Source of the DNA: Escherichia coli
GTDB lineage: Bacteria > Pseudomonadota > Gammaproteobacteria > Enterobacterales > Enterobacteriaceae
DNA length: 64,000 nucleotides
Direction: 5' to 3' (one strand)
NCBI RefSeq assembly: GCF_048403405.1
Contig: NZ_CP183129.1
The stretch's first letter is position 1, and each line of letters starts with the position of its first letter. Under the pieces are notes generated by a model, which was not told the origin of the DNA, made no database searches, and was given only the letters and a program-made list of their open reading frames with translations. Shown here piece after piece: positions 13,375 through 17,313 of this stretch. A program made the position numbers and the translations under genes.

Positions 13375-13404
13375 AAATGCAAACAACTTCCATCAAAAAA
13401 GTGA
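13375..13404 (+). repeat. 30-bp direct repeat, copy 1 (AAATGCAAACAACTTCCATCAAAAAAGTGA)
   Basis: Identical 30-mer recurs at 16486..16515 in the same orientation. Confidence 0.95.
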
Positions 13405-13653
13405 CAAAGGAAGCATCAAATGTTTTAAGTATCAATATATCAAATCAGATTTAGTGTAAATAATAGTCTCCAAAATGCGGTAAAGCACATAGAACTCCGA
13501 ACACTACGTTCGGGCTTCGCACGTTCAAACCCGTTTTCGGTATCATAATCAGCATCTGTCGCCATTGTACGAAGAATAAAAAATGACCAAAACGTTGAAA
13601 GGAACTGAGAATACGTTAAGAGAAGAATTAAATTAATGTATCAGCAAGTAGTG

Positions 13654-14553
13654 CTAAACAGCACCTTTATACTTCAGCCTATCTATAAATAATGAGAATG
13701 CCGAGCCAGCATGTCGACGGTGTGGATAGTACAGGTGATAACCGGGTAAATCTGGTGTGAATTTATCCAAAACACGTATCAGTTTTTTTTCTTTAATAGC
13801 CCGCTCAACTTGATCATAAGGTAGATACGCCAATCCATGCCCATCAATTGCAGCATCAATGATCAGGTCTATCGTATTCAGTAAAAGCTGACCTTCCATG
13901 CGAACACGAACTTCACGTCCACCGCGTATTAATCTCCAGCGATTTGCTGTACCCGATGTGGGAAGATACAAATTAATTGCCTGATGATCTATTAATTGTG
14001 ACACTGACGTTGGAGCACTTCGACGAGAAAAATAATCCGGTGAGCCAACAATAGCCATTGGTATATCTGGCCCGATTCGAATGGCGATCATATCTTTATC
14101 CATCTCCCCACCCAGACGGACGCCTGCATCAAAACGTTCAGAAACGACATCGGTCAAACCATAATCAATGGTAAGCTGGATATCAATTTCAGGATGCGAT
14201 TTCAGGAATGTGCGCATAGCTGGTAACAATATCGTTTTTGCTGCATGTTCTACAGTAGTAATACGTATTGTCCCGGATGGGCGGTTCTGCAGATCGCTCA
14301 GGGATGTCAGGGCAGAATCTATGTCATGCAACATAGGGCCAAGAACAGACAAAAGATGCTCGCCCGCTTCAGTGGGTACAACGCTGCGCGTGGTTCGCGT
14401 CAGAAGCCGCAATCCCAATCGTTCTTCTATACGGCGCACTATCTGGCTTAAAGCTGACTGCGCCATGCTCAGGCGGGCTGCTGCGCGAGTGAAGCTACGC
14501 TCCTCTGCAACGACGACAAACGCCATCAGATCAGCGATTTCTTCACGCTTCAT
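13654..14553 (-). CDS. pgrR: LysR-family regulator PgrR (YcjZ)
   Basis: 299-aa ORF, N-terminal LysR HTH, divergent from ycjY. Confidence 0.85.
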   Translation of the reverse strand: MKREEIADLMAFVVVAEERSFTRAAARLSMAQSALSQIVRRIEERLGLRLLTRTTRSVVPTEAGEHLLSVLGPMLHDIDSALTSLSDLQNRPSGTIRITTVEHAAKTILLPAMRTFLKSHPEIDIQLTIDYGLTDVVSERFDAGVRLGGEMDKDMIAIRIGPDIPMAIVGSPDYFSRRSAPTSVSQLIDHQAINLYLPTSGTANRWRLIRGGREVRVRMEGQLLLNTIDLIIDAAIDGHGLAYLPYDQVERAIKEKKLIRVLDKFTPDLPGYHLYYPHRRHAGSAFSLFIDRLKYKGAV

Positions 14554-14690
14554 TCAGTATCTCCATACAATCTATTAATCATTTAAATGATAGGTCTAAT
14601 CATAATTTAGGGTCTAATCAACTTAATGATCAATATCTATAGTGATATCACCAACCGTCAAAACGAACCGACAACTCCATGAGGAACGGA

Positions 14691-15611
14691 ATGATGAATA
14701 ATAAAGTCAGCTTCACTAACAGCAATAATCCAACCATCTCTTTGTCTGCAGTGATCTATTTCCCTCCAAAATTTGATGAAATCCGTCAGTATCCGGCAAT
14801 TGTGGTATCTCACCCAGGTGGGGGCGTTAAAGAGCAAACGGCTGGAACCTATGCCGAAAAACTGGCGGAAAAGGGATTTGTCACTATTGCTTATGACGCA
14901 TCTTATCAAGGTGAAAGCGGCGGCGAGCCGCGTCAGTTAGAAAACCCATACATTCGTACTGAAGACGTCAGTGCCGTGATTGATTACCTGACAACGCTTT
15001 CTTATGTCGACAATACCCGAATTGGTGCGATGGGAATTTGTGCCGGTGCAGGATATACAGCCAATGCTGCAATTCAGGATCGCCGCATCAAGGCCATCGG
15101 TACTGTTAGTGCGGTCAATATTGGTTCGATGTTCCGTAATGGTTGGGAAAACAATGTGAAATCTATTGATGCCCTACCATACGTTGACGCGGGTTCAAAC
15201 GCCCGAACCAGCGATATTAGTAGCGGAGAATACGCCACTATGCCACTGGCACCAATGAAGGAGTCCGATGCGCCGAACGAAGAACTGCGTCAGGCCTGGG
15301 AGTATTACCACACCCCTCGCGCGCAGTATCCAACAGCACCGGGTTACGCTACTTTGCGCAGCCTTAACCAGATTATTACCTATGATGCTTACCATATGGC
15401 GGAAGTGTACCTGACTCAGCCGATACAGATTGTGGCGGGCAGCCAGGCAGGGAGCAAATGGATGAGTGACGACCTGTACGATCGAGCATCAAGCCAGGAT
15501 AAACGCTATCACATTGTTGAAGGCGCAAACCATATGGATCTTTATGACGGCAAAGTCTATGTGGCTGAAGCAATTTCAGTATTAGCGCCGTTCTTTGAGG
15601 AAACTCTGTAA
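14691..15611 (+). CDS. ycjY: Alpha/beta hydrolase (dienelactone hydrolase-like) YcjY
   Basis: ORF 14679..15611; start placed at the second ATG (14691), which follows a GAGGA Shine-Dalgarno. Confidence 0.8.
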   Translation: MMNNKVSFTNSNNPTISLSAVIYFPPKFDEIRQYPAIVVSHPGGGVKEQTAGTYAEKLAEKGFVTIAYDASYQGESGGEPRQLENPYIRTEDVSAVIDYLTTLSYVDNTRIGAMGICAGAGYTANAAIQDRRIKAIGTVSAVNIGSMFRNGWENNVKSIDALPYVDAGSNARTSDISSGEYATMPLAPMKESDAPNEELRQAWEYYHTPRAQYPTAPGYATLRSLNQIITYDAYHMAEVYLTQPIQIVAGSQAGSKWMSDDLYDRASSQDKRYHIVEGANHMDLYDGKVYVAEAISVLAPFFEETL

Positions 15612-15685
15612 TGAAACATATTCAAATCCGCAATAGTGATATGGCCTGGCATATTACTGCCAATAATCTGGGAAAAGTTTCATGA
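15611..15685 (+). CDS. 24-aa micro-ORF (YmjD-like) coupled between ycjY and ymjC
   Basis: ATG overlaps the ycjY stop (TAATG) and its TGA overlaps the ymjC ATG (ATGA). Below the ORF-track size cutoff; coding status unproven. Confidence 0.35.
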   Translation: MKHIQIRNSDMAWHITANNLGKVS

Positions 15686-16320
15686 AAAATGTACTGATTC
15701 TTGGTGCTGGCGGTCAGATAGCCCGCCATGTGATTAATCAACTGGCAGATAAACAAACCATTAAACAAACTTTATTTGCCCGTCAGCCAGCAAAAATCCA
15801 CAAACCCTATCCCACTAATAGCAAGATTATTATGGGGGATGTACTGAATCATGCAGCACTGAAGCAGGCCATGCAGGGACAGGATGTTGTGTATGCCAAC
15901 CTTACGGGGGAAGATTTAGATATTCAGGCAAATTCAGTGATCGCTGCGATGAAAGCCGGTGATGTTAAACGTCTGATCTTTGTTCTTTCCCTCGGTATTT
16001 ATGATGAAGTTCCAGGAAAATTTGGCGAATGGAATAATGCAGTTATTGGTGAGCCCCTAAAACCATTCCGCAGGGCTGCGGATGCAATTGAGGCTTCTGG
16101 ACTGGAATATACAATTCTTCGCCCTGCCTGGCTGACTGATGAAGATATTATTGATTATGAGCTTACCTCACGCAATGAACCATTCAAAGGTACGATCGTA
16201 TCACGTAAGAGTGTCGCTGCATTAATTACAGATATCATCGATAAACCTGAGAAACACATTGGTGAGAATATAGGCATCAATCAACCCGGGACTGATGGTG
16301 ATAAGCCATTCTTCATGTAA
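15682..16320 (+). CDS. ymjC: NAD(P)-binding Rossmann-fold protein (NmrA/atypical SDR-like), YmjC-type
   Basis: 212-aa intact ORF with N-terminal GAGGQIA glycine-rich motif. Confidence 0.75.
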   Translation: MKNVLILGAGGQIARHVINQLADKQTIKQTLFARQPAKIHKPYPTNSKIIMGDVLNHAALKQAMQGQDVVYANLTGEDLDIQANSVIAAMKAGDVKRLIFVLSLGIYDEVPGKFGEWNNAVIGEPLKPFRRAADAIEASGLEYTILRPAWLTDEDIIDYELTSRNEPFKGTIVSRKSVAALITDIIDKPEKHIGENIGINQPGTDGDKPFFM

Positions 16321-16338
16321 ATCAATTATATAGCTACC

Positions 16339-16370
16339 ATCGTACTGTACTATGTGCAGTACGATTTATT
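16339..16370 (+). terminator. Intrinsic terminator downstream of ymjC
   Basis: Perfect 9-bp stem ATCGTACTG-N9-CAGTACGAT followed by TTATT. Confidence 0.6.
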
Positions 16371-16485
16371 AAACTTATTAAGGTGAACTGATCAATCAGA
16401 TGCGATTAACATGTGTAGAACCAGTAAGAATAAAATACGCCATGTATATAACATTACGACAATTCTAATATCTGCACATCAATGA

Positions 16486-16515
16486 AAATGCAAACAACTT
16501 CCATCAAAAAAGTGA
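16486..16515 (+). repeat. 30-bp direct repeat, copy 2
   Basis: Exact match to 13375..13404, about 96-125 bp upstream of mpaA. Confidence 0.95.
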
Positions 16516-16610
16516 TACAAGATCGATAACATAGCGTTGAAGAAAAGGATTTGATAATCCGCAAAATTTGCACAACACTGCCTGTAATACTTCCTGAACC
16601 AGAGACGATC

Positions 16611-17313
16611 ATGACCGTAACTCGCCCACGCGCCGAACGCGGCGCATTTCCGCCCGGAACAGAACATTACGGACGTTCATTATTGGGCGCGCCGTTAATC
16701 TGGTTTCCGGCCCCTGCAGCCAGTCACGAAAGTGGTTTGATTCTGGCTGGCACTCACGGTGATGAAAACTCTTCGGTCGTCACGCTCTCCTGTGCTCTGC
16801 GGACGTTGACACCGTCTTTGCGCCGCCATCATGTGGTGCTGTGTGTGAATCCTGACGGCTGCCAGTTGGGGTTACGGGCCAATGCTAATGGTGTGGATTT
16901 AAACAGAAACTTTCCGGCGGCGAACTGGAAGGAAGGTGAAACCGTTTATCGCTGGAACAGCGCCGCTGAAGAACGTGATGTCGTATTGCTGACAGGTGAC
17001 AAACCTGGCTCCGAACCTGAAACCCAGGCGCTGTGCCAGCTTATACACCGCATTCAACCCGCCTGGGTGGTCTCATTCCACGATCCGCTGGCCTGTATTG
17101 AAGATCCCAGACACAGCGAATTAGGCGAATGGCTGGCCCAGGCGTTTGAATTGCCTCTGGTAACCAGCGTCGGTTATGAAACGCCTGGCTCTTTCGGCAG
17201 TTGGTGTGCAGATCTCAACTTGCATTGCATCACCGCAGAGTTTCCGCCCATCTCCTCCGACGAAGCCAGCGAAAAATATCTCTTTGCGATGGCAAACTTG
17301 CTGCGCTGGCATC

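Follow-up and report, generated by a model that had tools for sequence, protein, structure and literature searches.

A 24-codon reading frame lies between ycjY and ymjC in the Escherichia coli DNA analyzed here, joined to each neighbor by a stop-start overlap. Such an arrangement raises the question of whether the frame is a device that relays ribosomes into the downstream gene, as a sequence-only reading of the locus had proposed, or whether its neat geometry has another origin. The window, to which all positions refer unless another locus is named, is a stretch of 64,000 nucleotides from contig NZ_CP183129.1. Comparison with K-12, with other E. coli genomes and with the one close outgroup found allows the history of the frame to be reconstructed step by step.

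Geometry of the locus

The ycjY stop codon is TAA (15609-15611), and the ATG of the micro-ORF (15611-15613) shares its final A, giving the sequence TAATG (15609-15613). The ORF 15611..15685 (+) comprises 24 codons with the product MKHIQIRNSDMAWHITANNLGKVS, and its TGA (15683-15685) overlaps the ymjC ATG (15682-15684) in the sequence ATGA (15682-15685). The cistrons are co-directional, with overlaps of 1 nt between ycjY and the micro-ORF and 4 nt between the micro-ORF and ymjC. The ymjC frame (15682..16320) is uninterrupted over 212 codons, and its product matches the Pfam model NAD_binding_10 from end to end (1-184/184, E 2.7e-54). The sequence-only reading had described the TAATG and ATGA overlaps, the 24-codon frame and an intact 212-aa ymjC, and all of these are borne out at the positions given. 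The features of the locus are collected in Table 1.

Table 1. Features of the pgrR-ycjY-ymjD-ymjC region, in window coordinates
Feature	Position	Strand	Remarks
pgrR	13654..14553	-	Divergent LysR-type regulator of the ycjY-ymjDC(-mpaA) operon
ycjY	14691..15611	+	Alpha/beta hydrolase, first gene of the operon; start as in PGAP
Shine-Dalgarno (SD) GAGGAA of the micro-ORF	15597..15602	+	Within the 3' end of ycjY; anti-SD duplex -6.2 kcal/mol
Micro-ORF, ortholog of K-12 ymjD (b4673) plus 3 codons	15611..15685	+	24 codons
5' segment, 55 nt	15611..15665	+	Equals the first 55 nt of full-length hydrolase-2 except for the A16T SNP at 15656
Junction of the in-frame 867-nt (289-codon) deletion	15665..15666	+	From comparison with L091
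3' segment ATCTGGGA	15666..15673	+	Final 8 coding nt of the hydrolase gene (..H L G)
Weak SD GGGA of ymjC	15670-15673	+	Inside the 3' segment; -4.2 kcal/mol
AAA codon, at the site of the earlier TAA stop (hydrolase gene and 21-codon ymjD)	15674..15676	+	Stop-loss creating the ATGA overlap
ymjC, intact, 212 aa	15682..16320	+	NAD(P)H-binding (atypical SDR); lacks 12 nt (4 codons) directly after the ATG relative to hydrolase-keeping strains
12-bp hairpin with U-rich tail, probable operon terminator	16339..16365	+	-16.2 kcal/mol, z -4.74; deleted in K-12

Two starts are available for ycjY: that chosen by PGAP (14691) is preceded by an SD of -6.9 kcal/mol, and that of the longer ORF (14679) by one of +0.1 kcal/mol, which amounts to none. 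The start of ycjY in K-12 has also been re-mapped in a tetracycline ribosome-profiling paper.

Identity with K-12 ymjD

The micro-ORF is this strain's ortholog of K-12 ymjD (b4673). It occupies the same position, flanked by ycjY and ymjC and co-oriented with them, its ATG sharing one base with the ycjY TAA, and its peptide is identical to K-12 YmjD at 19 of 21 residues. In the curated MG1655 record, ymjD spans 1390868-1390933 (21 codons) with ycjY from 1390933, a 1-nt overlap, and is followed by a 60-aa ymjC (b4525). UniProt holds the K-12 peptide as 'Protein YmjD' (YMJD_ECOLI). The exact peptide of the window is already public as 'hypothetical protein', and both 24-aa forms are public under such names, on 620 and at least 1000 contigs. 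None of the RefSeq records examined has a PGAP annotation for the ORF, and no YmjD model was found in NCBIfam.

The K-12 and window alleles have in common their position, the TAATG overlap, the SD, the junction of an 867-nt deletion and a 12-nt deletion at the start of ymjC. K-12 ymjD retains a TAA stop, has 21 codons, ends 7 nt before the ymjC ATG, carries Asp12 and Ala16 and precedes the truncated 60-aa ymjC, whereas the window allele has AAA in place of TAA, 24 codons, the ATGA overlap, Ala12 and Thr16, and an intact ymjC. The sequence-only reading had taken ymjD and ymjC to be fragments or pseudogenes in K-12 and proposed a comparison to find the lesion; this places it in ymjC, as a 665-nt deletion (window 15821-16485) that leaves a 60-aa ORF. 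The micro-ORF is an allele of an already known, annotated gene, a classic in-frame deletion remnant within a standard arrangement of overlapping cistrons, and it has no feature beyond known categories. The addition made here is small: one stop-loss separates the 24-codon form, with its intact ymjC, from the 21-codon form of K-12.

A deleted hydrolase gene as the source

Approximately 25% of E. coli genomes carry, between ycjY and ymjC, a full-length alpha/beta hydrolase gene of 309-310 codons, termed hydrolase-2 here, whose product is a paralog of YcjY (41% identical). Its ATG overlaps the ycjY stop in an identical TAATG. The gene is intact (309-310 aa) in three E. coli loci (L090, L091, and L092), and in O157:H7 (L001) a frameshifted hydrolase-2 coding sequence begins at the same TAATG; in all four, the start is preceded by the GAGGAA SD. 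The only close outgroup found, a Pseudocitrobacter metagenome-assembled genome (L004), has the order pgrR, ycjY, intact hydrolase-2 (its ATG again overlapping the ycjY stop) and ymjC.

The micro-ORF consists of the first 55 nt and the last 8 nt of hydrolase-2, with 867 nt, a multiple of three, missing relative to L091. It is colinear with both the 5' and the 3' ends of the full gene, as befits a deletion remnant, and the junction (GCCAATA followed directly by ATCTGGGA) is identical across all 11 remnant loci compared. Full-length hydrolase-2 (WP_000680602.1, WP_001612930.1, and the Pseudocitrobacter gene of L004) shares with the micro-ORF the SD, the start, the first 18 codons and the last codons; in contrast to the full-length gene, the micro-ORF has lost 289 of 310 codons and with them the whole catalytic fold. 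The micro-ORF is thus a pseudogene stump: a hydrolase gene in a tightly packed three-gene operon lost 867 nt in frame, and its two ends remain.

Two further observations concern the full-length gene. Its inactivation in O157:H7 is due to a +1 frameshift in a G-run (L001 2154-2166), which has 9 G as against 8 G in the intact L090; O169:H41 and several strains of commensal or animal origin have the gene intact. The best NCBIfam match of an intact copy (L091 1522-2451) is to the UilS family of quorum-quenching N-acyl-homoserine lactonases (E 7e-21, 75 bits), a score far under the family cut-off of 400 and hence a distant hint only.

Origin of the two overlaps

The start overlap and its SD were inherited unchanged from the full-length gene. 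The end overlap can be traced by aligning the 3' ends of the alleles. The ancestral hydrolase gene reads CTG GGA TAA GTT TC ATG (L091, L092), the K-12-type remnant GGA TAA TTT TC ATG, a rare intermediate GGA TAA GTT TC ATG, and the window-type remnant GGA AAA GTT TCA TGA. The codon equivalent to 15674-15676 is TAA in four further loci (L002, L086, L095, and L097) as well as in L091 and L092. The ATGA overlap thus arose by a single TAA→AAA substitution at 15674-15676; with this stop lost, the frame runs three more codons into the TGA of ATGA. The double-overlap geometry is not a matter of chance, being accounted for by descent from a deleted gene and one stop-loss. A history in which two stops (TGA and TAA) were lost was also considered and ruled out, GGA being the ancestral last codon (L091 and L092; GAG in Pseudocitrobacter). 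The TGA found at the last hydrolase codon in O157/O169 is derived.

A 12-nt stretch at the start of ymjC (ATGAGAAATATT, lying between ATGAnAAAT repeats) is likewise missing from every remnant allele. Hydrolase-keeping strains have at this point a pair of in-frame ATGs, spaced 12 nt apart (L091 2460-2490), the upstream of which matches the long N-terminus of the Pseudocitrobacter protein (L004 2989; MKNIIQKVL vs MRNIMKNVL). The start that PGAP assigns in these strains, giving a 212-aa ymjC, may be four codons short. The ancestral hydrolase gene stops 8 nt ahead of the upstream ymjC ATG, and the TAA stump of K-12 form 7 nt ahead of its ymjC ATG. This spacing is nearly unchanged, and the ATGA overlap is therefore not needed for a geometry that permits coupling.

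Alleles in the E. coli population

Across 5426 complete E. coli genomes, three architectures of the locus were found. Any match to the region was obtained in 5237/5426 genomes; 3948/5426 carry the deletion remnant in one allele or another, and about 1290/5426 (5237 − 3948) still have hydrolase-2. The 24-codon core (AAA) is present in 1516/5426 genomes, with ymjC intact in 39/40 sampled rows. The 21-codon core (TAA TTT) is present in 2288/5426, and all 40 sampled rows have a truncated ymjC. The intermediate (TAA GTT; 7/5426) likewise has a truncated ymjC in 7/7 rows and carries the 665-nt deletion of K-12, so that the pooled TAA alleles have a truncated ymjC in 47/47 sampled rows. This association of the stop-loss with an intact ymjC could hint at selection for the overlap; a single ancestral split gives the same pattern.

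The association is an argument for supposing that the stump was co-opted as a minimal coupler cistron, the TAA→AAA change having been selected after loss of the hydrolase and the exact ATGA overlap restoring or boosting YmjC synthesis. If true, a selected coupler would account for the near-restriction of intact ymjC to the 24-codon allele and for its truncation in all TAA alleles sampled, and the hydrolase deletion being in frame agrees with it. We nevertheless consider it improbable. The association is explicable by one ancestral split and is effectively a sample of one, and an in-frame deletion has a prior of 1/3. With a stop-to-start spacing of 7 nt in the TAA stump as against 8 nt in the ancestor, there was nothing to restore, and the strength of the ymjC SD is the same after the mutation (-4.0 vs -4.2 kcal/mol). 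Moreover, ymjC has been lost on the 24-codon background too (L084, L098).

Predicted translation and coupling into ymjC

The anti-SD duplex energies are -6.9 kcal/mol for ycjY, -6.2 kcal/mol for the start of ymjD and -4.2 kcal/mol for ymjC. The last is weak in every allele (-4.0 to -4.2 kcal/mol), and the stop-loss leaves it unchanged. A consensus scan found no promoter or terminator match between ycjY and ymjC, and an Rfam scan of 14400-16700 at E<=1 gave no match. The predicted fold of 15580-15730 is not unusual (z -1.27). With neither an unusual fold nor an Rfam leader family, the micro-ORF does not have the character of a leader peptide or attenuator uORF.

The genes ycjY, ymjD and ymjC form one operon under the divergent PgrR (PMC3946193; PMC5934670), and the Shimada operon table lists it as ycjY-ymjDC (PMC3946193). 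In the work of Huber et al. (2019; PMC6728339), overlapping E. coli gene pairs tested experimentally are described as strictly coupled. Like the pairs described there, the present locus has co-directional cistrons in one operon, overlapping stop and start codons (1 nt and 4 nt) and an SD that lies within the gene upstream. It differs from them in having a pseudogene stump of 24 codons, not a real gene, as its middle cistron, with a predicted dependence of ymjC translation on it.

Translation of the stump is expected because its initiation signals are intact, and from these we infer a relay of ribosomes through the stump into ymjC. Ribosomes leaving ycjY, or loading at GAGGAA, would translate the stump as far as ATGA and, after terminating there, reinitiate on ymjC, whose own SD is weak. 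The in-frame deletion would in this way have passively kept the flow of ribosomes into ymjC that existed in the ancestral three-gene operon, and no newly evolved relay need be invoked. Such a relay is a plausible legacy of that operon. The sequence-only reading had taken the double overlap as a signature of translational coupling and the micro-ORF as a relay; the geometry is indeed compatible with termination-reinitiation, but the overlaps are inherited or due to one mutation, and the comparisons made here gave no evidence of an evolved or maintained relay.

The same origin could also be combined with a stump that is irrelevant to ymjC, which would initiate independently through its own GGGA/AAAG region while translation of the stump had no measurable effect. 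The ymjC SD, though weak, is recognizable and suitably spaced (-4.2 kcal/mol), and the local mRNA is not unusually structured (z -1.27), so that unmasking by upstream ribosomes would not be required. Against this, overlapping or near-overlapping E. coli pairs were strictly coupled in the cases tested in that study (PMC6728339), and ycjY and ymjD both have stronger SDs than ymjC. We regard independent initiation as rather unlikely, while giving it some weight, and prefer passive coupling through the stump.

Constraint on the stump and decay of the operon

No sign of selection on the peptide or on the relay was found in these comparisons. Across the six remnant loci in which the flanking genes are intact, the stump has a nonsynonymous polymorphism of 0.034 per site, as against 0.007 in ycjY and 0.012 in ymjC; in intact hydrolase alleles it is 0.006. 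The stump value derives from tiny counts (2 synonymous and 2 nonsynonymous changes) and is not significant. Known variants of the stump are A12D (K-12), W13R (E2348/69) and A16T (window), and the same 18 codons are invariant in four hydrolase-bearing alleles. The direction of these differences points to relaxed constraint, with counts too few for significance.

A conserved small protein would look different: the outgroup has a full-length gene, the peptide is 21 or 24 aa long, and there are three nonsynonymous variants in 21 codons. YmjD is annotated as a protein in the curated K-12 record, and a tagged form was reportedly detected in K-12 by Hemm et al. in 2008; both points speak for an independent function of the small protein. 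We hold this to be very improbable, however, given that outside the deletion lineages the sequence is found solely at the N-terminus of a 310-aa enzyme, that its length differs between lineages and its substitutions (A12D, W13R, A16T) are radical, that IS1 interrupts it in one locus (L093), and that it is absent from 174 genomes and has no NCBIfam model. A full-text literature search for ymjD returned only the Shimada operon table, and the supplementary data of three papers (TetRP, Weaver, Mg-starvation) contain no ymjD entry. The peptide of the stump is most likely without function, and the ATGA overlap most likely a neutral by-product of the stop-loss.

The remainder of the operon fares little better. 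In L093, IS1 lies after codon 7 of the stump and ymjC is gone. On the 24-codon background, ymjC was lost in L084 and L098 by different deletions (window 15771-16337 plus 13883-15098), and in these two loci the pgrR-ycjY promoter region was lost along with most of ymjC. Truncation or loss of ymjC has occurred independently at least three times. The ycjY operon locus is decaying and dispensable in E. coli. Downstream, the mpaA frame of ATCC 25922 (L085) is interrupted by a stop codon.

Boundaries and distribution of the module

A direct repeat of 37 nt, identical over a 30-nt core (AAATGCAAACAACTTCCATCAAAAAAGTGA), occurs at 13375-13411 and at 16486-16522, and its two copies bracket exactly the pgrR-ycjY-ymjD-ymjC block. 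A precise empty site is found in 174/5426 E. coli genomes, in which mppA and mpaA are adjacent and divergent and a single copy of the repeat remains. The whole block is therefore a dispensable indel, an inserted or excisable module in the murein-tripeptide mppA/mpaA intergenic region. The 665-nt ymjC deletion of K-12 ends at most 1 nt from the left edge of the right repeat copy, which may be a coincidence or may mark a recombination-prone junction.

The operon probably terminates at the hairpin downstream of ymjC (16339-16365), which was missed by the consensus terminator scan. The K-12 operon is listed as ycjY-ymjDC-mpaA (PMC5934670), and loss of the hairpin from K-12 fits an operon listed as running on into mpaA.

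Homologs of YmjC are patchily distributed, with 83% identity in Pseudocitrobacter, then 60-69% in Afipia, Mesorhizobium, Stenotrophomonas and Burkholderiales, and approximately 50% in lactobacilli and Bacteroidota. In a search of genome contigs with YmjC, no other representative of the Enterobacteriaceae was matched, and all matches outside Pseudocitrobacter were at or below 69% and in unrelated taxa. This lack of other enterobacterial homologs suggests that the module was acquired horizontally.

Implications

Taken as a whole, the account in which ymjD is the stump of a deleted hydrolase gene, with inherited initiation signals, one stop-loss, a passive relay to ymjC and a non-functional peptide, has in our estimate a probability of about 0.72. 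For annotation, it means that ymjD exists in 21- and 24-codon forms that PGAP does not annotate, in a ycjY operon that is eroding; past this, the finding matters little. What looks like a neat relay micro-ORF can be no more than the two ends that a gene deletion left behind, and double stop-start overlaps around tiny ORFs should be compared with relatives before they are called a device.
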